Part shown: piece by piece, positions 3,493 through 44,226 of the stretch
Layout: each line of letters opens with the position of its first letter
How positions within the stretch are numbered: the first letter of the stretch is position 1
NCBI GenBank assembly: GCA_900128585.1
Contig: LT642175.1
Span: forward strand, 1 to 44,226
Direction: 5' to 3'
Length of the DNA stretch: 44,226 nucleotides
DNA from: Stramenopiles sp. TOSAG23-3
Lineage: Eukaryota
Translations under genes and position numbers: made by a program
Notes under the pieces: model-generated
Databases searched by the model: none
Told to the model about the DNA's origin: nothing
Seen by the model: the letters and a program-made list of their open reading frames with translations, nothing else

Positions 3493-4360
3493 CGTTAAAC
3501 AAAGAAAACTCTCGAACAAACAGCAGTCTGTCAAAATATAGAATTCAAGAAGAAGAAGAAAAAAACGTGTGCAACCGGACTGACAAACTATGCAACAACC
3601 TCTTCAGCACGCGATGACTTTTGGTTGGTGGTGACGTACGTATATATATTGGTTCTGCCTTCTTACTTTTCGCTGGTAAACAAAAATAAAAATGCAATCT
3701 TTCGTCTTATATATAAACAAATGAAGTTCTGGACAATAATCTTCCGCCGTGTTATAAACCTTCTCTTTTCCCGTCTGCCTTACATATACACTCTTCCTTT
3801 GTTCCCACTCACTTGATGGTTTACTTTCCTCGTTCACCACCGAACCTGTTAGTTGTTTTTAATTTATTTCTATTATTTCTTTCTCGCAACAAAAAATTAA
3901 ATTATCTACCTACGTCATTTTACTAAATAAGGTATTGTATATTTTATAATATATACTAATGATAAGTAAATACAATACTTATATAATAATAATATGTATT
4001 TAAACTTTCCTTAATACATTTCGCTATTCCAGAATTAAAGCATTTCTTTTCTTTTATCTTTTTTTGTGTTGTTGTTGCAACTCTTCATTTAAAACCCATA
4101 GTATTTCCCTTCTAAATAAAAATTGTTTGTGGTATGAAATGTGGCTATGGATGGAATTCATTCAATCACTTTTTTCTATTATTTCTTTTATTTTGTACTT
4201 CGCTTATACTCTTAAGACTACGATACATAAGGTACACTCTTTAAGCTGAAAGTAATTAAATAATACACACCATCCACCCATTTTAAGAACATTTAATAGA
4301 ATAGGAATAGCGTTACTTCATTTAAATACCCTTTTCACCTATTATTTATTTATTTGCTTT

Positions 4361-4442
4361 TTGCCTTGCTTTTGCCTTGCTTTTGCCTTGCTTTTGCCTT
4401 GCTTTTGCCTTGCTTTTGCCTTGCTTTTGCCTTGCTTTTGCC
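4361..4442. repeat. Perfect 11-bp tandem repeat (TTGCCTTGCTT) x about 7.5
   Basis: Read directly from the sequence. Confidence 0.95.
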
Positions 4443-5912
4443 GGTATTTAATTAAAAAGAGAACCAACCTTTTAAACCCTTTTCTTTTCTTTAAATTAAA
4501 ACCAAACCACCTTCCTTCCTCCTCTCTCTCCTTCTTTCTCTCCTTCTCTCTTTCTTACTCTCTTTGCTTTCTTATACTCTCTCCTTATACTCTCCTCTTC
4601 TTGATTTTGAGAGACGGACTTATCTTATTTCGTTTAGTCAGAATGGACTTTTAAGTAAGTATTTAAATGCCTCCGATACTGTGTTCCTGTATGGAACCAA
4701 CCTGTGACCCACTTCTTTCTTTCTATTTTTTTAATTTTAATTCTTTCTTTCGCGCAAGCCAAGCCAAGCCGCCCTTCAATCAATCAGCCCACCCTATCAT
4801 AATGGTAATTTGTGCCCTCGCTATCTATGTTATTTATAAAAAGAACATCAAAATACTAAAACAATTGAGAATAAGAATCAACATATTATATACTATTATT
4901 ACCTTTACGATAATCCATTAATATTCAATAATAAGGGTTTGTTCTTGATACTTGCTTTGGTTCGACAACCATTCATTCATTTAAATTATTTCTTCAAAAA
5001 AGAAAGAAAGAAAGAAAGAAAGAAAGAAGGCCTCGGAAGAGTCGGAAGGAGTAGAAATATAAATAATGTTAGAATAAGGGTATTATAATTAACCCTAATG
5101 GTAACATTATTATCAATACCCTATTCATAACACATTTATGAAGAAACGACAACTTCCTTCACCAAAGTCCGAATTTTAAATGTACATCGGGTTATAATAT
5201 TACTATCGATTGTTGAAAATGTCCGTTGTTGATTTTTTTTTTAATTATTCGATAATTTATTTCGTCGGTCGGTCGGGACAACAACAAAATAAGTCATCAT
5301 TAAGGATATCTATATATATATGATAATATATGCTATGTGGATGTAAATAGAGGTATATTTTATCCCTTTTTTTTCTTCTATTTAGTTATAATTATATATG
5401 AATAAATGATTTCATCTAAATCCCTTTAGACATATAGCCTTATCATTCCAAATGGTCTTACATCGTTATTCCTATAGACACGTATCCTTAATGGTGGTTT
5501 ATTTTGTCTCTCTCCAGCCAAATTATAATTTCGGAAGAAGAAGAAAGAAGAAGAAGAAGGAGGTCACCACTACTTAATTTATTATTTAATATATTTTTAC
5601 AATAGGAGGATGAAACTTCCACCCGTTGTACTTATAATTAAATGATGTAATGTATTTTCCTATCAATACAAAATAGTAGTAGAAGAAAAAGAAAGAAAGA
5701 AGATGAAGAAAGAAGAAGAAGAAGAAAAAAATATCGATCATCTTTTTTTTTGCTATTGCCCATCCCCATGCGTGAGCAATTACTATAGTAAATATATTGA
5801 TTATGTTTGAAGCAACAGAAAGTGTGTTTAAACTTCCGATCGACCTGACGCAACGGTACAATCGGCAACGTCAACAACGCACAGCGAACAATACCAACTA
5901 AATTTAGAAACC

Positions 5913-10108: not shown

Positions 10109-10174
10109 CACAAGAGTATATTTGATTAAATTTTACTAAAGGAATAAATAGCAGCCAATAGTTTTTGTTTTTAA
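10109..10174 (-). repeat. Dispersed 3'-gap repeat, internally deleted copy
   Basis: Minus strand TTAAAAACAAAAACTATTGGCTGCTATTTA..TTAGTAAAATTTAATCAAATATACTCTTGT matches the head and a distal part of the 28223-28412 copy. Confidence 0.75.
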
Positions 10175-12113: not shown

Positions 12114-12415
12114 ACCCCATCCATCAAATAATGGTCGGTGGTGATGGAGTTAGGTTTACAATTTAGATATATATTATATATAATATAATAATAGCACTGA
12201 ATTGTATTGAATGGTGTCTAGCCCTGTGTTATAAATGTTATATACGAATAGTGAGTCATTAATAGTAGGAAGAGAGTACAAGAAAGGAAGGTGAAATTCG
12301 ATTGTCTTTTATCAGCGTTTACATAGTAACTATAGTTAAAGTACATTAAAGTAAAAACACACCACCACACTATCAGATGTATAAAAATTAATATTTTATA
12401 TACAAATACCTCCTT

Positions 12416-12554
12416 TTTTTCTTCTCTTCTTCTTCTCTTCTTCTATCTTTTATCTTCTTCTTTCTTCTCTTCTTTTTTCTTCTTCTTCTTCTTCTTTCTT
12501 CTTCTTCTTTTCTTTCTTCTTCTTCTTCTTCTTCTTCTTCTTTTTTTTCTTCTC
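12416..12554. repeat. CTT pyrimidine tract
   Basis: Read directly from the sequence. Confidence 0.85.
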
Positions 12555-14382: not shown

Positions 14383-14673
14383 AAGTGTTTTGTCGAAAGA
14401 AAACACCCCACCGCGGGTTGCACAACTTTTTAGCTCGCGTCGAGCTTCGTTGAAAGTTCAGAAGGTATGCGGGTAAGATCTTAATTCGCACTTTACGTGA
14501 CACCGAGAAGAAGCATTTATAAATCGCGGTAACCGTAATTTTAGTGTTTGTACTTCTTCGTAATTAGTAAAAGCAGTTTGTCAGTATGATAGTGCGTTTT
14601 TTTTATTTTTAAAATTTATATTCGATTACGCACACTAACCCAAACGACCCTCTCCCGATACTCCAACCCAGAA

Positions 14674-14886
14674 ATGGCAAATTCCCTGTCTGGTTTGCAA
14701 GAGATTAGAAAACGAGCGCCTCCAAAACATTCACGACGCTGCTTGGAAATTCACACAGGGGCCATTTCACTTTTGAGTGAGGCACCGGATGAGGAAGTTG
14801 ACTACGGGTCATTTGACATCGACGCAAATCCAAATACCGATTCGGATCATACACGGAGTACACCTGAGAATGATAGTCAAGACTAA
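14674..14886 (+). CDS. Possible small acidic-tailed ORF or exon (70 aa)
   Basis: ATG preceded by a CACTAAC branch-like box (14633-14639), a pyrimidine-rich stretch and CAG (14669-14671). No recognisable domain; its 3' end overlaps the dispersed repeat. Confidence 0.3.
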   Translation: MANSLSGLQEIRKRAPPKHSRRCLEIHTGAISLLSEAPDEEVDYGSFDIDANPNTDSDHTRSTPENDSQD

Positions 14887-15017
14887 GTGTATATATTGAT
14901 TAAAAATCACCGGAGCAGAGGAGCAGATGTAATGGACAAAAGGAGCAAATTCAATTTCGCGGTACATGAGGAGAATAAATTTTAATTACTTCAACAACAG
15001 CCAATCTTTTGTTAAAA
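14863..15017 (-). repeat. Dispersed 3'-gap repeat, long copy A
   Basis: Reverse complement of 14930-15010 aligns without gaps to 28231-28311 (69/81 identical by hand count); gapped similarity continues to about 14863. Confidence 0.9.
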
Positions 15018-15123
15018 TGTATACACCAAAGGCCAAACGTTTTCACGTGTGCCTAAATCATACAGACGTACGTACACCAACCCACATGTTTCTACAGGAA
15101 TTAAACGTTTTAGAAATCCCGGG

Positions 15124-16236: not shown

Positions 16237-16272
16237 NNNNNNNNNNNNNNNNNNNNNNNNNNNNNNNNNNNN
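16237..16272. other. Assembly gap (36 N)
   Basis: Run of N in the sequence. Confidence 1.
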
Positions 16273-20363: not shown

Positions 20364-21625
20364 TGCCTGCCCTGGCCTACTGATCTTCTCCAAAAATACG
20401 AGCAAGGAGGAGGATAAGAAATGAACGAGCTATCCACACTATCTATGTCGTGTGTACAGAGACGAGATGGTTTGTGCGGGTAAACGTTCGTTTTGGTTTT
20501 CCTGTGTAGATTGAAATATGAAACTATTATCAAAATAAACCTTACCAATTACTAAATTGGTAGACCGACCGACGTATTTTTTTATTTTAATATAATTATT
20601 TATTATTATAATAATAGTCCGTCTTTCTTCTTCTACCGTAATAATATAATATTAATAAAAATAATAAAAATTTTATTATTATTTCTTATTCTTCATGTTG
20701 TGAGGCTGTTATGGTAGTTGAAAAAAAAAGAAGAAGAAAAAAGATGATATGCGCCTTTTTTTTTGTACTGTGGTGTGTATTTACTCTGTAACTCTGTATT
20801 AAGTATTACATAAAAAAAAAAGAAATAAAAATAAATAAATAAATAATAATTGACTTACTATACAAATCCAACTATTTAGACTACAGGTATACAATAGGAC
20901 AATAGGTAATCAAAAGGTTTTCTTCTTTTATATTTTAGATTATAAAATATTACTACAATATAACTTCCTATAATGACAATGCTTTTGTCTTTGTTATAGA
21001 ATATAGAGTACCGTAGTTGATTTAAATAGGATAGAAAGTTATTTAAACTAAATCACTAAACTGTACATATCTGTATTTTAAACTAGATATAAGTATCATA
21101 CAGTGAAATAATAAGTTAGACTAGTTATAGATAAAGTACACTACTTTTGACTTTTGCTTCTTTCTTTCTTTCTTCTTTAAAAAATTTGATATAATTAATA
21201 TAATCTATACTGTAGTATATATAGATATACCATTGGAATAATTATATTTTAAAGTTTTACCGCGAAATTCAAAAAACGTCCAAATAATATATTTATACTT
21301 GTATTTTGTATACTATATATAGGATATATTATAATGTGCCGGGATTATTCCACTCCTATTGAATTTAGTATTAAAACTCATAAACTATAAATAAATACAC
21401 TCTAAGGAATTAGAGGGAATACTACTACATTTTAAATTATTTTACTATTTTTAAACTATACAAAGAGAAGGCAATAGCACTATTACAAAGACGTAATAAA
21501 ATAATACTGAATTTATGTTATTTTATACTATACTTAATTTTGAGTTGTAGTAGTCTAAAATGAATTATAGTTTGTTTTAGTCGTCGTCCTAGCTTGTGAT
21601 CTTCTTGTTTTTGGCTTTTTGAATT

Positions 21626-21805
21626 GAAGAAGAAGAAGAAGAAGAAGAAGAAGAAGAAGAAAAAGAAGAAGAAAAAGAAGAAGAAAAAGAAGAAAAAGAA
21701 GAAGAAGAAGAAGAAGAAGGGAAAGAAGAAGAAGAAAGAAGAAGAAGAAGAAGAAAGAAGAAGAAAGAAGAAGAAAGAAGAAGAAAGAAGAAGAAAGAAG
21801 AAGAA
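21626..21805. repeat. (GAA)n-type microsatellite/purine tract
   Basis: Read directly from the sequence. Confidence 0.95.
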
Positions 21806-22215
21806 TCATCCCATCCCCCTCTCCACACGACCCAACCCGAACAAAAATAATTTTTAATAAAAATAATAATAATAATAATAAAACAACAACAACAACAAGA
21901 TGATGATGGTGGATCTTCTTCTTCTTCGATCGCGATCGATGCTTTCTTAAGCTAAGCTGCTTCCTTGGCTTTTGCTGCTTGAATGAATACGTTGTCATCC
22001 ATTCAAACGCAATAGTTCTTTTCTTTCCCTCTCCTGCACGAATAGAATGTACGAGGCGTCCTATCCAGAAATTTGGTACAAGGCATGTTTGAAGGCACGA
22101 ACCGAAAAATAAATTAATTAAGCATTCCCATTTTCTTGTGAATTGTTATTGGCAGTGGGTGGGCGTTTGCTTGTTTTTTACAAAACGTATAAGGGGTTGC
22201 CGTTGTGTTCTAAGT

Positions 22216-23205: not shown

Positions 23206-23429
23206 CGGTATTTTTATAGTTGTGTACGCTGTTGTACGGCGACGAAGCGTGCGTTGAAGACAAAAGCGTGGAGGGCATGATGTACTAACATACGGTAAAT
23301 ACCCAGTGTGAATCACCTCCATACGTTACAACAAATTACATTAAAAATATACTCTGATGATTACTACTTATGAAGCGTATGATACATTACACAGACGCGC
23401 TACAGTGCTACGTTGGCCTCACCTTGGCC

Positions 23430-24042
23430 CTAGTCTTCTTTGCCCGGGTTGTTGGCAGCCTGTTCAATCTTTTCTTGCAATGCTGCGTTTTCCTTCTTCA
23501 AACGAGCGTTTTCAGACTTCAACGCCTCAACATCCACGCCAGCAGGGGCGCCTAAATACCTTTTGATGTACTCCACAGCGTTAGGTGGGCGTTCTGGTTC
23601 TTCGTAGAGTCCTACAAGAACTGTTGTTTGCGTAAAAGAGATGCGGTTAGTGGACATGTTAAAGCGAACGAGAGAGGGGGGGGGCGGGGGGGGGGGGCAG
23701 AGGGTTTACTTACCTTTGGTGAGGGCATCGATAACGCCACTCTTTTCCAGGTATTTCCTGAACTCTTCTTTCTTTGTGTCTGGTGTCTGCAAGGAGTAGA
23801 AGTAAGGGAGGCGGGGGTTAGCTAATGAAAATGGAGAATAATGAAGGTGGGAGCGATTTGAAGATCGACAGTGGAAACGTGCGTGGCAACACAAACGCAA
23901 AATGGAACGTGTGTGCTGCCCATCCATTCGTTCGTTCGTTCGTCCATTCGCGCGTGCCCGTCCGTCCGTCCGTCCGTTCGTCCGTTCGTCCGTTGAGTGA
24001 GAGAGGTGGGACTAGTTATATACGTACTTGGTAGGAACTCAT
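23430..24042 (-). CDS. MYCBP: c-Myc-binding protein / AMY-1 / FAP174 homologue; 3 exons (24042-24028, 23786-23714, 23620-23430)
   Basis: Spliced product MSSYQTPDTKKEEFRKYLEKSGVIDALTKVLVGLYEEPERPPNAVEYIKRYLG...; introns GTACGT..TTGCAG and GTAAGT..CAACAG, each with a CTAAC branch box; splicing restores the frame. Confidence 0.95.
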
Positions 24043-24807
24043 CCTTGTGTTTGTGAATTAAATATAGGCTCTTAAATATATAAAGTTGAACAATATAAAC
24101 AGTTGTTTCTGACTGACCAATTAAATTGATAAACTAATTTCCTTTCAAATTATACCTTTCCTTCTGTTCCATTAGAAAGTTAGACTTCATATAGTTTAAA
24201 AGGACTCGTTCCACTGAAAGAGAGGTTATATTATTATATAGTTAATCTTCTTCTTCCTTCTTCTTCTTCTTCCCTCCTCTTCTTCTCTTTTGTTGTTCCA
24301 CCACTGTAGTACGGTAGTATTATCATTATGTTCCTTTTTTTTCTTCTTAAAATAATTTAATTTTTTCCTTTTTAAAAAACAACAACAAAAGGAAGAACAA
24401 AGAAAGAAGAGAAGAAGACAGAATTATTTACAGGCCTGTGTCTATGTTACTTCGTGTATATAGAAACAAACGGAAAGTCGAAAAAAAATTGTCGTTTTTT
24501 ATTTATATGAGAACCTTTGCTGTCTCCATATTAAAGGTGTAACAGCTAAAGGAGCCGAAAATAATTCGAACGAAAACAAACGGAAAAAAAAATAATAACA
24601 TAAACAGAGCATTAACGAAATCATTATTTTTTCTTTCTTTCTTCATTTCCCTATATAAATCTTATAGCTAAAACTTCAATTAACTACGCCCTCTTTCTCT
24701 TCGGAGCTTCTATTTTTAGGGAAACAGTTTCAATTTTAACATATTAGTGTTAATGATAGGGTATGGAGCGTTTAAAAACCCCTACGTAAATTTTCCTGGT
24801 TTACACG

Positions 24808-26657: not shown

Positions 26658-27434
26658 TCCTTGCTATTCAGTTCTATTAATTAATTAATTAATTAATAAT
26701 GCTATTGCGATATACAGCGAAGTACTTTTTGTGTTTCAAAAATATAAGTTGATGAATAGAGACTCCTCCTGTTATTCTTTGTTAAATAAATTAATAATAA
26801 ATAATTATTAATTATTCTTCTTCATATTATTATTTATTTTATTTCTTCCATCATCCTGTATAGTATTTATAGTATTAATATTAATAATAGTAGAATGTAT
26901 ACGACACAGGGAGGAGAGGTGTACCGTAGAGAAGAGGAAGAAGAAGGAGTGTTGTTGTATTTCGTCGTCGAGAGAGAAGAGAGTATAATAAAAAAAAAAT
27001 AATAATATTATTATTTTTTTTTATTATTATATTAGGGAAGTTCGTTAGTTATTATAGTTTGTTTGCGACGAAACAGACAGCATATTGTGATTAAAGCAGA
27101 AGAAATACCAAGACATTTTTTAATCCCTTCTGCCATTTAACATATCAGTGTGTCTTGTCCTCATTTGATACAGTCAGTATTGGTCAGCGTTTTAAACGGT
27201 TCATTTTTTGTTTTTTTCTTCTTGTTCGTTGAAAAAAAGAGCACATATATTTGCTTAGGGTGAACGTCCTGTCCTGTCCCACCTACAGGAAAAGACAGAG
27301 GGAGTTTGTGAGCTTTGGCAGAAAATTGGTTCGGCGAGAAGCGCGTTCTAACATTCCCGGTGAAAGAAATATATTTTAGTCGGGTGAATTAGTTACAGTG
27401 CCGCTATACACCGTCAACTTTTTCCAGTATCAAC

Positions 27435-28217
27435 ATGGACCTGGGGAACGCCGCACAATCGGCGGATATGCAACTTCTCTTCCAGAGGTACGCGGCGCAA
27501 ATGGCCCAGTTTCCTCAGTCTGCTAGCAACGTAGGAGGCCCAAGCACGTCGTACCAAAACAACGTTAGAGAAGGCGACGCACCGCTGGAGGAAGATGTGG
27601 GCATGCCGGCATCGTTCGGTCTTGCCCCGTTACCGGACGACGGGGGGGCGGACGATGGAGGGAACGTAGGAAATAGTAATAGTGCTTCAAGCGCAGACCA
27701 AGACCAAATTGGTCAATATTTTTCAAACACAAGTGCCCCGTGGATGGCGTCGGCGTCGAGGCACGTCCTCCCCGCCGGCTCCACGGAGGATGAACCGGTC
27801 TACGTCAATGCGAAGCAATATAAACGCATACTCCTTCGCAGGGAAGCTAGAAACAAACTAGAAGCAAAGTTCAAGTTGAAGCAAGGGCGAAAGAAATACT
27901 TGCACGAATCCAGACACCGCCACGCTTGTCGGCGGCAGCGCGGCCCAGGGGGGAGGTTCCTGTCGGCGGCGGAGAAAGAAGCATTGGCGAAAGCGGAGAG
28001 CCAGGCGGGGAGCAAAGATAGTGGTTCGAAATCGAAAGGCGATGTAAGCAGGGGGGAGAAAACGCCACAGAAGACAAAAGGTCGGGGTGGTGCGTCCAAA
28101 AGTAAAGTTGCAGGCGGCAGTTCGGGAAAAAAGAAGAGAACCAAACTAAGCACGGAAGGGGGCAAGAAAGCCGATAAAGGAAGCGGCGGGAGCAGCCCGA
28201 AGAAGCGAAGAGTGTAA
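27435..28217 (+). CDS. NFYA: CCAAT-binding factor subunit NF-YA/HAP2
   Basis: [24 protein letters not shown] and [22 protein letters not shown] are the two NF-YA core helices. Confidence 0.97.
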
Positions 28218-28222
28218 TTTTC

Positions 28223-28412
28223 TTAAAACAAAAAAATTGGCTGTTATTTAAGTTAGTAAAATTTAGCTTTCTCATGTACCGCGAAAATGAATCTGCCCCT
28301 TTTGTCCATTAGAGGTTTACCTTCCTTCAATGTACTGCGAACGTTTCTCTGCTCTCGCCTTGTGGTTTTACTAATCAATATACCCTTGTCACTTAGTGTT
28401 GACTATTTCAGG
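28223..28412 (+). repeat. Dispersed 3'-gap repeat, long copy B
   Basis: Starts 6 nt after the NF-YA stop; aligns to the reverse complement of 14863-15017. Confidence 0.9.
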
Positions 28413-28598
28413 ACTAAATTGGTGGGAACGTGCCATTATTTGCATTTTTTAAATACGTGTATATTTATTGTAATTAGCACGAAATATAATTTTGTGATTC
28501 TTAAAAATTCTTGATACGATTGAGCGAATAATTCGTAAGAACGTATGAATCTTAAGAGTATGGTATGTACAGGAGGAGGCCTAGCCACCGCACAAATT

Positions 28599-29315
28599 TC
28601 ACCCAATTTTCATCTCCCTCGACCGGGACAGGAACTTGCTTATTCGTGATCTATGTGCGGGGAAACTTAACCACTCTTCGTGCGCGTCGGATTCGCCGAT
28701 CGGGCGTAGCAAAAGTGAGAACTCTCCCACTTCGTTGTCCTGTTCCACGTCCACAATGATTGCGGGGCGCCAAATGTCCCTGTGGTTTACTGTGCAGTGT
28801 TTGCCGACGCTATAGTGGGACGAAAGGAAGTCCACCAACATGCCACGACGGTACGACAGGGTGCCACCAGGCTCCTCCGTCTGGGGGCTTCTGGACAGCA
28901 AGGGCACTGTTTTCGCCGCACTGGAACCGTGGCGAGAGTTCGACTGCCGAATGTATCCTATTCCTTTTGAGGAAGACGAACGAGAGTCTGAACCAAGCAA
29001 CTCCGTGTGATAAAGGGACGTTAGGTCATCGGGAAGTCCAGGCCTCTCCACATTTCCACTGTATACATACATGCCTTCCTTCTGATTCACCGTGTGCCGC
29101 CCTGGCCGCGCTACCCGCTCTTTGCACGCCTTTGTCCTCATAGCAAAGTGTTGAATCTCTCTACATTCGGAACACACCACCACTATCGCCTCTTTGTTCC
29201 ACGTGTCATCAACTTTTGCGACCTGCCCAGTGCGCCAGTGACCGCTGCTATCACGGTAATCCACTAAACTGTCCCGATAAAGCCTGTTTGAACTTTTCGA
29301 AACCGACTCGCCCAT
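28599..29315 (-). CDS. Hypothetical protein with two Tudor/Agenet/chromo-barrel-like segments
   Basis: RDSLVDYRDSSGHWRTGQVAKV and RGMLVDFL...IWRPAIIVDV...EEWL...SRI patterns; first ATG at 29315. Fold is inferred. Confidence 0.65.
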   Translation of the reverse strand: MGESVSKSSNRLYRDSLVDYRDSSGHWRTGQVAKVDDTWNKEAIVVVCSECREIQHFAMRTKACKERVARPGRHTVNQKEGMYVYSGNVERPGLPDDLTSLYHTELLGSDSRSSSSKGIGYIRQSNSRHGSSAAKTVPLLSRSPQTEEPGGTLSYRRGMLVDFLSSHYSVGKHCTVNHRDIWRPAIIVDVEQDNEVGEFSLLLRPIGESDAHEEWLSFPAHRSRISKFLSRSREMKIG

Positions 29316-29863
29316 GGGATGGACACTTCTCGCATACAAAATCCACCAACGCCGACTTGGTTTCCGGGATATAACTTCCTGCTTTCTGGATTTCTTTTCT
29401 TACTACACCGACACTGCTACTTTCCGGTCTTGTAATTACTATGCAACTTGCAGAAGTAATTTTGGTGTGGTACAACGTACAACTAACAAGCATTGTGCGT
29501 GCAACGACGCGAAGAAGAAGAAGAAGGTCGAAAAGAAAGAAGAAGAAGAAGAAGAGAATAATAAAATAATAATCTCAGCAGCAGCAGCAGCAGAGGAGGG
29601 GTTCCTTGGTTCCTCCTTGGTGGTCGTCTGGTGGTTCCTCTTCTTATATTTTTTAATAATAATATAATATATTGGACTTATACAAAACAACAACAAGCAG
29701 ACAACAACAGGGGGGTTGTGGGAAGAAGAAGAAGACAAAAGAAGAAGAATGAAAAGAAAAAAAAATAAAGAAGAAAAATATAAATAAGAAAAATAAATAA
29801 ATACGTTATTGGTAGACGTACGGTACAGGAAAACGATTAGAAACGATCCATGTGTACCACCAT

Positions 29864-32017: not shown

Positions 32018-32271
32018 TGTTGCAACTCGCAAGTTCCTGCCAAAACGAGTATTACAATGTTCACTTGCCTAGGTTAACACCGGCTCATAAAGTCTCTTTT
32101 GCAATATTTTGTATGCGACAATATGTAGGAACGCTGCTGCCGCGTTTATTTAATTTATCTCCTTTATGGGCACTGGAATGGAGAACGTAGAGTGTGGATT
32201 AAAACAAGGAAATCTCCTCCTACCGTCTGTTGTCACAACATCACATCATAATCATTATATTATCATTTTAC

Positions 32272-32577
32272 GAAGAAGAAGAAAGAAGAAGAAGAAGAAG
32301 AGGAAGAAAATTAAAAAAGAAGAAGAAGATAAAAGAAGAATTAAAAGAAGAAGAAGAAAGAAGAAGAAGAAGATGATGAAAAGAGAAGAACAGCAAACAA
32401 CAACAACAACAAAAACAAAGAAGAAGAAGAAAGAAGAAAGAAGAAAGAAGAAAGAAGAAGAAGAAGATAAAAGAAGAAGATAAAAGAAGAAGAAAGAAGA
32501 AGAAGATAAAAGAAGATAAAAGAAGAAGATAAAAGAAGAAGATAAAAGAAGAAGAAGAAAAAGAAAGAAGAAGAAGA
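32272..32577. repeat. Long GAA-rich tract with recurring GAAGATAAAA units
   Basis: Read directly from the sequence. Confidence 0.9.
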
Positions 32578-33222
32578 CCCGTAGTAGTAGCGGCGGGGGC
32601 GTCTCATATAATAGAGGTTGAACAACAGAACAACAGTAAAAAAACAGAAAGTACAGACCTGTACCAAACCGAACATCTTATTAATATCATATTATTATAT
32701 TATTAATAATATTATTATAGCAAGGTAGCAACAGCATTGCAACATTCCAACTCGAAAGTAACTCCTTCCTTCTGTCCTCCTCCCTTTTTGTTGAGTTTCT
32801 TCTTCCAACTGCATGCTATTAGCTATATGACTGCTATGCACACGTACGTAGTAATAATTTGTTGTATTATTATTGTACTTATTGGATAATTTAGATTATA
32901 GCTATACATAGAGACTATAGTAATAATAATAATTATATTATTTTTTTTCCTTTTTTTTTTTTATTATTTATTTTATAATAATACCGGTAATAAAGAGAAG
33001 AAGATTATAGGGAGGAGGAGGGTTGGTTGCAAGTGGACACAGTATTTTGTTGTATTACTACGTGCATAATTTTTGTGTACTAACTCGGTTTTCTTTGAGT
33101 TCCTCCGTGCAAAATGTTCATGCCAAGATTCCTAGGTCAAAGAGTAAAGGCCTTGATTTTCTTGTGACCATTGTTACTTGACGCAGAAAAGCACTTGTAT
33201 CTTGCATATACCTGGTACTCTC

Positions 33223-35162: not shown

Positions 35163-35270
35163 TTTTACTAACTCGGGAAAATAGCCATTAAGAGTTCTTA
35201 CTATTCTTTAATTGTTTCACTGTCCATACTGATATGGTAATGATATAACAGCCAATTTTCTTGTTTTTAA
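35163..35270 (-). repeat. Dispersed 3'-gap repeat: well-matching head (35245-35270) plus a degenerate second fragment (about 35163-35190)
   Basis: Minus strand TTAAAAACAAGAAAATTGGCTGTTAT, then GGCTATTTTCCCGAGTTAGTAAAA resembling GGCTGTTATTTAAGTTAGTAAAA of copy B. Confidence 0.75.
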
Positions 35271-42070: not shown

Positions 42071-42173
42071 AAGAAGAAAATGGGGGGGGGTTAACATGAA
42101 GCAGCGTTAAAATAAATTCTAGTTAGTTAACCATACGACGTATATATGGTGTGTATTATACGAATTATAATGT

Positions 42174-42253
42174 ATGAGGAAGCTAAATTTAATTATCATA
42201 CTAAAAACAAGAAAATTGGCTGTTTTAATTTTAAAGCCAATTTTCTTGTTTTA
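42174..42253. repeat. Dispersed 3'-gap repeat with inverted duplication of the head (18-bp perfect stem, 42204-42221 / 42235-42252)
   Basis: AAAACAAGAAAATTGGCT-13 nt-AGCCAATTTTCTTGTTTT; adjacent ATGAGGAAGCTAAATTT matches the reverse complement of AAATTTAGCTTTCTCAT in copy B. Confidence 0.9.
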
Positions 42254-42407
42254 TAAATTTTCTTTAAAATATTTGAAATATAAAAAAAACAAATTATATA
42301 GTTTTCAAATATATATTTTTTTCAATTGATCTTAGCTTAAAAACAAATTATCATTTGTTTTTCATACTTGATTAAGTGATTCAGAACTCACAAATCTAGG
42401 TATTTTT

Positions 42408-43458: not shown

Positions 43459-44148
43459 CTCTCCAACTGTGTAAGAATAGCCCAAGGCTTTAAATGTGCA
43501 CTGTGTGAAAACGTGCTCCTGGTATAACAACAGATCCAACAAAATGCAACAAAAAGCTCACACGCCACAGAAACTAATGGGGTTTCATTTCTTCTTTGTA
43601 TAAAAGCGATGCGCCTCTTCTTCTTTTTTCCTTTTGTGTGTGTTTTTATATTATATATATATTTTATTAATAATTGTTTATTATTATATTTTATACTATA
43701 TATTATTATTATTTTTACTCTACTTCCGCCGCCCCGTACCCCGTATACGTATACACATATTCTATTAAATACTCCCTCCTCCTCCTCTCCTTCTTCTTCT
43801 TCTTCTTCTTCTTCTTTCTTCTTCATTCACATCTCATAAACGGATCTATAGTCGTCTCGACTAATTAAAATATAAAGAAAGACGACGATTGATTATTAAC
43901 TTATAATAGGCAAATACCAAGTAAAATATAATAGTTCACATATTGAGACTCATATATTCGTCTTTGTATTTTTTATATAGAGCCAATATATTAACTATAA
44001 CAACTATGGGGAGACTAACGTAAATAAATTAATAGCAGTAGTACCATCTATTATTTAAGTCAACGCTCTCGAGTCCACGACCTCGTACATTGTACATACA
44101 CTACTATTACTATAAATAATAAAAGAAAGACTTTAAAAATTTAATAAT

Positions 44149-44226
44149 GAAGAAAGGGAAGAAGAAGAAGAAGAAGAAGAAGAAGAAGAAGAAAGAAGAA
44201 GAAGAAGAAGAAGAAGAAGAAGAAGA
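44149..44226. repeat. (GAA)n microsatellite running to the window end
   Basis: Read directly from the sequence. Confidence 0.95.

Follow-up and report, generated by a model that had tools for sequence, protein, structure and literature searches.

Truncated copies of a probable R2-like retroposon lie behind genes in a stramenopile genome

Copies of the R2 retrotransposon have a specific 3′-end, with no obligatory poly(A), and are often truncated at their 5′-end. L1, in turn, makes use of an APE-type endonuclease and of poly(A) priming. LINEs with a restriction-like endonuclease mostly insert in one repeated target, such as the rRNA genes or microsatellites (PMC4640811). Leishmania SIDER1 and SIDER2 are described as large families of truncated, degenerate retroposons located mainly in 3′-UTRs (PMC2323293, PMC5689007, PMC11520807). 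Other mobile elements live in gene-dense genomes by inserting in places where they do little harm; examples are the TRE elements of Dictyostelium and the Ty1 and Ty3 elements of yeast, which insert near tRNA genes (PMC5006619, PMC6101501).

The repeat family analysed here, for which no description was found in the literature searched, is closest in machinery to R2 and the other LINEs with a restriction-like endonuclease (R4/Dong, NeSL, CRE/SLACS, HERO and Utopia). The core of its open reading frame (ORF) is predicted to match the C-terminal zinc-knuckle and PD-(D/E)XK endonuclease of R2Tg and R2Bm. Like those of R2, its copies retain a specific 3′-end that need not carry poly(A), and many of them are 5′-truncated. 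The family differs from this group, however, in using many sites behind genes, defined only loosely by their A/T content, and in that its endonuclease is followed by ∼300–400 disordered residues; no reverse transcriptase was recognized in its partial ORFs. Given the predicted endonuclease module and the signature of retroposition, the family can be filed as one that would work like an R2-type LINE, although a single specific target was not found. With L1 copies it shares a variable 5′-end, target-site duplications of variable length and an A/T-rich nick of the TT/AA kind; unlike L1, its endonuclease has a predicted fold of the restriction-like type, and most junctions have no poly(A) tract. 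In genomic placement the closest analogues are the SIDERs, since both are truncated, degenerate and located behind genes. SIDERs stem from a different retroposon lineage, with no sequence relation to this family, and of the two they are the ones with demonstrated roles in mRNA decay and translation. As is the case for the elements that occupy safe havens, the family is confined to low-harm places of a gene-dense genome; TRE, Ty1 and Ty3, however, are directed to Pol III genes through contacts between proteins that are known, while the haven of this family would be the 3′-flanks of Pol II genes.

The window, that is, the whole stretch of 44,226 nt that was analysed, is eukaryotic, with long and mostly unbroken ORFs whose Pfam domains are those of eukaryotes (La, SDE2/SPRY, carboxyl transferase, KH, Mis12, NF-YA, PH/filamin, GRASP, Cys-rich FGFR repeats and MIF4G/MA3), separated by AT- and GAA-rich spacers. 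Gene order, as deduced from stop-to-stop ORFs and Pfam matches, defines seven convergent, six to seven divergent and four tandem gaps. A previous reading of the sequence alone (hereafter the sequence-only reading) had described a dispersed element of ∼190 nt present at five sites, only between convergent gene ends, in five of the seven tail-to-tail gaps, and had counted 69 identities in an ungapped 81 nt alignment of its two long copies. This alignment was reproduced: the inverted pair 14930–15010/28231–28311 is 85% complementary over 81 nt. The 21 nt motif AAAACAAGAAAATTGGCTGTT had four matches in the window at up to three mismatches, compared to none in 100 shuffled sequences, and ATTGGCTG was found at five sites (1.39 expected), all five inside the claimed copies. 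A profile of the tail, built from 99 copies from outside the window, gave matches in the window at E values below ∼1 at 35270−, 28223+, 42202+, 42253−, 15005− and 10159− (position and strand), and no credible match outside these six known sites; the divergent gaps gave none, as had been claimed. The motif is present in five of the seven convergent gaps. The convergent gaps at 656–1026 and 23206–24807 lack the motif, as do all four tandem gaps. Convergent gaps account for 0.305 of the intergenic length of the window, so that the chance of all six motif copies lying in them would be ∼0.305^6, roughly 8e-4 by our own arithmetic.

The 9.9 kb surrounding the copy at 28223 were found in many public sequencing runs labelled as marine or seawater metagenome. 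Apart from X1 and X2, at least half of the sampled words of this region were contained in twelve rows, which came from seven studies. The genome paper on Bathycoccus prasinos reports that this species has no transposable elements, which makes it an improbable source. Four runs (X1, X3 and the RNA libraries X15 and X20) were aligned to positions 27300–29450 at a likeness of at least 80%. Run X1 yielded 230 aligned records and X3 927, almost all of them on 28164–28451. The summed depth over 28236–28307 was 206707 in X1 (40–57 in the flanks), 17432 in X3 (∼6 in the flanks), 659 in X15 (∼4–6) and 58.6 in X20 (∼4.7), values that do not equal copy number and that support only the statement that copies are very many. 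Hundreds of distinct copies were present in the sequencing runs. Family sequence was also present in RNA libraries; in the RNA-run records 11, 14 and 21 the element was located inside longer contigs, which show neither strand, ends nor levels. The RNA contigs of X15 and X20 provided no cover at 28092–28163 nor, in places, over the gene flanks.

A motif scan (19 nt) of metagenome contigs identified at least 119 loci (L001–L119), which may not be from the species of the window. Twelve of the 119 (L004, L022, L025, L029, L032, L051, L061, L069, L076, L080, L085 and L112) proved to be unrelated bacterial sequences containing the 19-mer by chance, and were left out on the basis of the bases that follow it, not of taxonomy. 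In these loci the 19-mer sits in conserved bacterial sequence, mostly in contigs from gut metagenomes. A few further listed loci were also chance matches and were excluded by the same means.

The copies recognized in the window are listed in Table 1. All five sites originally reported were recovered, while the extents of several copies had to be corrected, namely the end at 28406, the copy at 14622–15013 and that at 35244–35268.

Table 1. Copies of the repeat family in the window
Copy	Position	Strand	Evidence
Short degenerate tail fragment	10124..10172	+	45 nt, 82%, E 3e-5; profile E 1.1 (weak)
Longest window copy: last ∼88 codons of the ORF, ∼130 nt of 3′-UTR, tail	14622..15013	+	ORF repeats, loci coverage
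5′-truncated copy, 3′-UTR only	28223..28406	-	Profile E 2.5e-9; up to 66 loci matches
Tail-only copy, ∼25 nt	35244..35268	+	AAAACAAGAAAATTGGCTGTT with 0 mismatches; profile E 1.9e-9
5′-truncated copy: body 42163-42195, tail 42232-42253	42163..42253	+	Alignments to L097, L101, L113, L115
Tail-only copy nested in 42163-42253, in opposite orientation	42204..42224	-	Profile E 1.4e-7

The copy starting at 28223, the sense strand of which is the minus strand of the window, has its 3′-tail beginning 8 nt past the stop codon of the NF-YA gene (28215–28217). The loose ends of reads and contigs at this copy lose agreement upstream of ∼28223–28232, while those downstream of 28406 agree with each other and with the longest window copy. 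Since the loose ends past 28406 share the family consensus, the copy at 28223 is cut short at 28406. The unit of ∼190 nt initially taken for a whole element (28223–28412) is thus a truncated fragment, its parent exceeding 2.7 kb. The coding part of the longest copy, whose limits replace a previous extent of 14863–15017, lies inside an open frame at 14593–14886, and the copy is bounded by a putative target-site duplication (14611–14621 and 15014–15024) identical at 9 of 11 positions. Within 35163–35270, the interval reported before, only the ∼25 nt tail is clearly of the family; TAATGA is present on either side (35238–35243 and 35268–73), a 6 nt repeat that by itself is weak evidence. The degenerate fragment lies 34 nt from the stop of the SDE2/SPRY gene. 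No convincing target-site duplication was found for this fragment or for the copy at 28223–28406. The copy located downstream of NOM1 is split by the inverted, tail-only copy nested in it, and the four loci to which it aligns carry the uninterrupted form. The tails of these two copies form a perfect inverted repeat of 18 bp with a 13 nt spacer.

Among the listed loci, the 112 motif instances with sufficient flanking sequence were compared. The motif end was constant and the other end variable: past the motif came one of several different bodies, a second motif or, often, no recognisable sequence beyond 17–30 nt. The number of listed loci covering the segment 14383–15123 rose from 1 at ∼14603 to 48 at ∼14983, a gradient of 5′-truncation. 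Target-site duplications were searched for as an exact recurrence, downstream, of the upstream flank, the flank 25 nt further out being used as a control. Among the listed loci, duplications were found in 24 of the 112 instances at k = 10 (3 of 112 in the control), in 36 at k = 9 (control, 7) and in 54 at k = 8 (control, 14). Given a control of 7/112, some of the duplications of at least 9 nt in this AT-rich sequence are due to chance. The 36 instances with a duplication of at least 9 nt enclosed inserts of 16–674 nt, 19 of them no longer than 60 nt. Duplication lengths varied from 6 to 15 nt. The two ends of the duplication-bounded copies were unrelated, with neither LTRs nor terminal inverted repeats, and the junctions of tail and flank mostly lacked poly(A). 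Ends, target-site duplications and terminal inverted repeats were the features that the sequence-only reading had proposed to define; the last of these are absent. Nested insertions were common in the family; for example, a copy of 296 nt at L028 6189–6484 is inserted in the 3′-UTR of another copy and has a 15 nt duplication on both sides. Reconstruction of the 36 empty sites showed A or T at positions −3 to −1 in 34–36 of them, followed by an A-rich stretch at +1 to +4. Beyond this the empty sites shared nothing, indicating no single specific target.

One constant end, one variable end and duplications of variable length are together the signature of target-primed reverse transcription. The constant end is where the RNA has its 3′-terminus, so that the sense strand of the element is the complement of the conserved ‘head’ described in the sequence-only reading. 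Read on the opposite strand, the head ends in ...AACAGCCAATTTTCTTGTTTT-3′ and is, in the related copies, the 3′-terminus of the element. The five sites probably hold 5′-truncated, dead copies of an R2-like non-LTR (LINE-type) retrotransposon, whose reverse transcription we infer from the structure of the copies. The parent element, of more than 2.7 kb, would contain a long ORF with a zinc knuckle and a restriction-like endonuclease followed by ∼300 disordered residues, and a 3′-UTR of ∼130–190 nt. Its enzyme would nick A/T-rich DNA, and reverse transcription would be primed at the nick on the specific 3′-end of the element RNA. Reverse transcription would usually stop early, keeping the tail and losing the 5′-side to a variable extent, down to ∼17–30 nt. 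The copies are concentrated in gene 3′-flanks.

The position of the motif relative to genes was analysed in the listed loci, for which gene calling was crude, every non-overlapping ORF of at least 180 amino acids being counted as a gene. Genes were present on both sides of 73 motifs, of which 52 were in convergent, 20 in tandem and one in divergent gaps; where only one flanking gene was present, 44 of 51 motifs faced its 3′-end. Counted by gaps, the motif was present in 41 of 71 convergent, 14 of 85 tandem and 1 of 41 divergent gaps, which represent 29, 47 and 24% of the intergenic length of these loci, respectively; the loci were picked for containing the motif, so these counts are not unbiased frequencies. 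Ascertainment would nonetheless hardly account for the near-absence of the motif from divergent gaps. In tandem gaps, 19 of the 20 motifs were located in the half nearer to the 3′-end of the upstream gene. The placement rule is a location behind genes, and not between convergent genes as such. Convergent gaps have a 3′-flank on both sides, which accounts for the convergent-only pattern of the window. The claim that the repeat occurs only between convergent ends holds for the window, and the excess in convergent gaps and the near-zero occurrence in divergent ones extend to the listed loci; in this wider sample, however, tandem gaps carry copies as well, next to the 3′-end of the upstream gene.

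The availability of nick sites was considered as a cause of this bias and discarded. The motif TTAAA/TTTAA occurs 11.6 times per kb in the convergent gaps of the window and 9.2 times per kb in the divergent ones, densities similar enough to indicate that site availability is not the cause. We lean towards purifying selection against insertions in promoters in a compact genome as the origin of the 3′-flank bias, active targeting being the alternative. It is conceivable but doubtful that an R2-like LINE has abandoned a single repeated target and homes actively to the zones where transcription of Pol II genes terminates, a safe-haven strategy that would be new, and that its thousands of tail fragments, some of which form perfect hairpins, now serve the host as bidirectional terminators or insulators between the closely packed convergent genes of this cosmopolitan marine picoeukaryote.

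In tandem gaps of the listed loci the orientation of the motif was the same as that of the gene in 9 cases and opposite in 11. The motif thus obeys no rule of orientation, which speaks against strand-specific processing and does not support the 3′-end signal suggested in the sequence-only reading. More generally, the repeat could be a 3′-end, termination or mRNA-regulatory signal of the host, either original or exapted, kept in position by selection. The strong 3′-flank bias is what such a signal would produce; conservation within the element is highest in the tail motif, the inverted tails at 42204–42252 would give an 18-bp hairpin in a read-through transcript, and the Leishmania SIDERs offer a precedent. 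The finding of the element inside longer contigs of RNA libraries fits this explanation too, although these contigs cannot show transcript ends. Nevertheless, a host signal appears unlikely: besides occurring in both orientations, the motif is carried by only five of the seven convergent and none of the four tandem gaps of the window, the copies are truncated at arbitrary points and nested in each other, and the element folds no better than shuffled sequence.

The open frame at 14593–14886 (+) encodes a C-terminus (...DEEVDYGS...ENDSQD, followed by the stop codon) that recurs in many loci, in some of them with stops. The ORF family had 31 database relatives, all 31 unnamed. Longer forms of the ORF, of 744, 776 and 851 amino acids, were present on contigs of 2.5–2.9 kb and are still partial. 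A single 5′-truncated copy at L028 3570–5279, flanked by AAGATA, joins the endonuclease region, the C-terminus, the 3′-UTR and the tail. A profile of the ORF compared against 1.84 billion representatives matched 287 clusters at E ≤ 0.001, nearly all of them short fragments. Pfam assigned no family to the 744–851 amino acid partial ORFs (zf-primase and Flt3_lig appeared only below threshold) and detected no reverse-transcriptase domain in them; these ORFs stop short of the 5′-part of the element. Sequence searches of the PDB with P0034, A1 and A2 were blank apart from a chance match to TRAF4 (E 1.2), no match was obtained for the ∼390 residues that precede the knuckle of P0035, and a scan of viral contigs for ORF relatives produced 93 pattern matches, none of which was confirmed. 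In the Atlas, the nearest clusters were unnamed, and the zf-RVT and Prp8 clusters scored 0.75–0.88, under the reliability line of 0.9.

A structure model of P0035 made from 7 sequences was not usable (mean pLDDT 35.9), while an AF2 model of P0036 made from 107 sequences had residues ∼40–300 mostly at pLDDT >90. VIA-align of this core gave as top match R2Tg (9dou_A; Z 9.6, rmsd 3.5, 179 aligned residues, chain positions 1199–1390) and, as second, R2Bm (8ibw_C; Z 9.0, 170 aligned, chain positions 920–1107); a Z of 9–10 is only modestly above the best Z of 7–8 typical of models without a clear match. In each case the aligned region is the C-terminal zinc-knuckle and restriction-like endonuclease of the R2 protein. 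Lower scores were obtained with the endonuclease-like domain of Prp8 (Z 7.1–6.2) and with viral (influenza and bunyavirus cap-snatching, Z ∼6–6.8) and restriction PD-(D/E)XK nucleases. Foldseek likewise ranked R2 proteins first, at E values of 0.24–0.5, none reaching 0.001. The alpha/beta core, which is preceded by a conserved Cys/His block (CPC..C..H..C..H), itself contains two conserved blocks, GNQADG and EHWDVHF. The core of the ORF thus folds, in this model, like the R2 zinc knuckle followed by a predicted PD-(D/E)XK endonuclease, a likeness of fold only. The residues that follow the core are disordered and rich in Ser, Asp and Glu.

The lack of a reverse transcriptase in up to 851 amino acids of partial ORF, and a disordered, Ser/Asp/Glu-rich C-terminal segment of ∼300 amino acids unlike that of known LINE proteins, would be in keeping with another origin: the copies could be retro-copies of a multi-copy host mRNA, mobilised in trans by an unrelated LINE, the ORF being unconnected to transposition. 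The predicted R2-like fold of the core speaks against this, as does the fact that the ORF family itself exists as hundreds of diverged fragments (the 287 clusters mentioned above). Further, junctions mostly devoid of poly(A) fit a priming specific for the 3′-UTR. A host mRNA origin is therefore very improbable.

The acidic tail of P0033–P0036 and of L028:5280–6122 contains repeated blocks in which hydrophobic residues are followed by acidic ones (for example TLVV-SS-DEDT), which we take to resemble SUMO-interaction motifs. The last ∼70 residues of the ORF (RQRAPLK..RCLEN...DEEVDYGS) are the best conserved part of its tail. Two gene calls in the databases, P0039 and P0062, join fragments of the element ORF to host enzymes, one of them DUF229/sulfatase-like and the other FAE1/type III polyketide synthase-like. 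These fusions are probably gene calls that read through into insertions in the 3′-flank.

Inverted pairs of the motif are present at 42204–42252 of the window and in L105 and L030, an arrangement that a DNA transposon or MITE family with the 21 nt motif as its terminal inverted repeat would generate. In most copies, however, a single end carries the motif and the opposite end varies; the duplications are not of a fixed length, and the inverted pairs correspond to nested insertions, each with its own duplication, as in L030. Such a family is consequently a highly implausible source of the repeat. Small non-coding RNA genes, as the sequence-only reading had suggested, or promoters located between convergent genes can be dismissed almost entirely: the CCAAT on the other strand of the motif and the element sequence in RNA libraries point that way, but Rfam 15 had no matches and ARAGORN found no tRNA genes in the whole window, the folding z-scores of 28223–28412 (0.24 and 1.20 for the two strands) were no better than those of shuffled sequences, and the copies are cut to arbitrary lengths. 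The absence of Rfam matches and of tRNA genes, and the protein-coding sequence carried by the longer copies, also set the family apart from SINEs, which have a Pol III promoter head derived from tRNA, 7SL or 5S RNA. Given the origin of the sequence, the resemblance of the motif to a CCAAT box and to an E2F site may be coincidental. The idea of a mobile element residing in terminator zones was the suggestion of the sequence-only reading that fared best: the target-site duplications, the nesting, the hundreds of copies and an ORF with a predicted R2-like endonuclease fold agree with it, with the amendments that the element is a retroposon and not a MITE with terminal inverted repeats, and that it prefers 3′-flanks in general and not convergent gaps.

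Other repeats were observed in the window. A second short module, AAAACAAATTATA, often continuing as ...TAGTATGTTTTAAGACTC, is located at 42286–42298 and 42340–42361. With up to one mismatch, AAAACAAATTATA had four matches in the window (0.2 expected), and 35 exact matches were found in 26 of the 119 listed loci, often beside the main family. This module may be the tail of another retroposon. In a divergent gap, positions 5192–5552 (366 nt) align at 70% to L007 6627–6974, the sole match between the window and the listed loci that involves neither the family nor simple sequence. This stretch may be a conserved sequence of promoter regions, or else a further repeat. GAA/TTC microsatellites are located in divergent gaps (12407–12553, 21617–21812, 32269–32597 and 44143–44226), their strand alternating between gaps, and these long tracts dominate the output of the repeat finder for the window. 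The divergent gap 3604–5831 also contains, at 4348–4453, an 11 nt tandem repeat, TTTTGCCTTGC, in ∼9 mostly perfect copies. A run of 36 N (16237–16272) is present inside the KH-domain ORF, which is separated from the upstream AAA-ATPase ORF by a gap of 54 nt, unusually short for separate genes.

Retroposition, an ordinary mechanism, would thus explain the presence of a repeat between convergent genes. What is unusual is that an endonuclease module of the predicted R2 type belongs to a dispersed and very dense family (six copies in a window of 44 kb), that many of the copies are ultrashort (17–30 nt), and that gaps bearing promoters are avoided almost completely. The family has practical consequences as well: because of it, assemblies of short reads are interrupted in almost all convergent gaps, gene calls such as P0039 and P0062 are contaminated, and protein databases contain hundreds of orphan ‘hypothetical proteins’. 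If the bias towards 3′-flanks were due to selection, the family would constitute a natural map of the places where insertions are tolerated; if integration were targeted, it would represent a mode of life not seen before in retroelements of gene-dense genomes.
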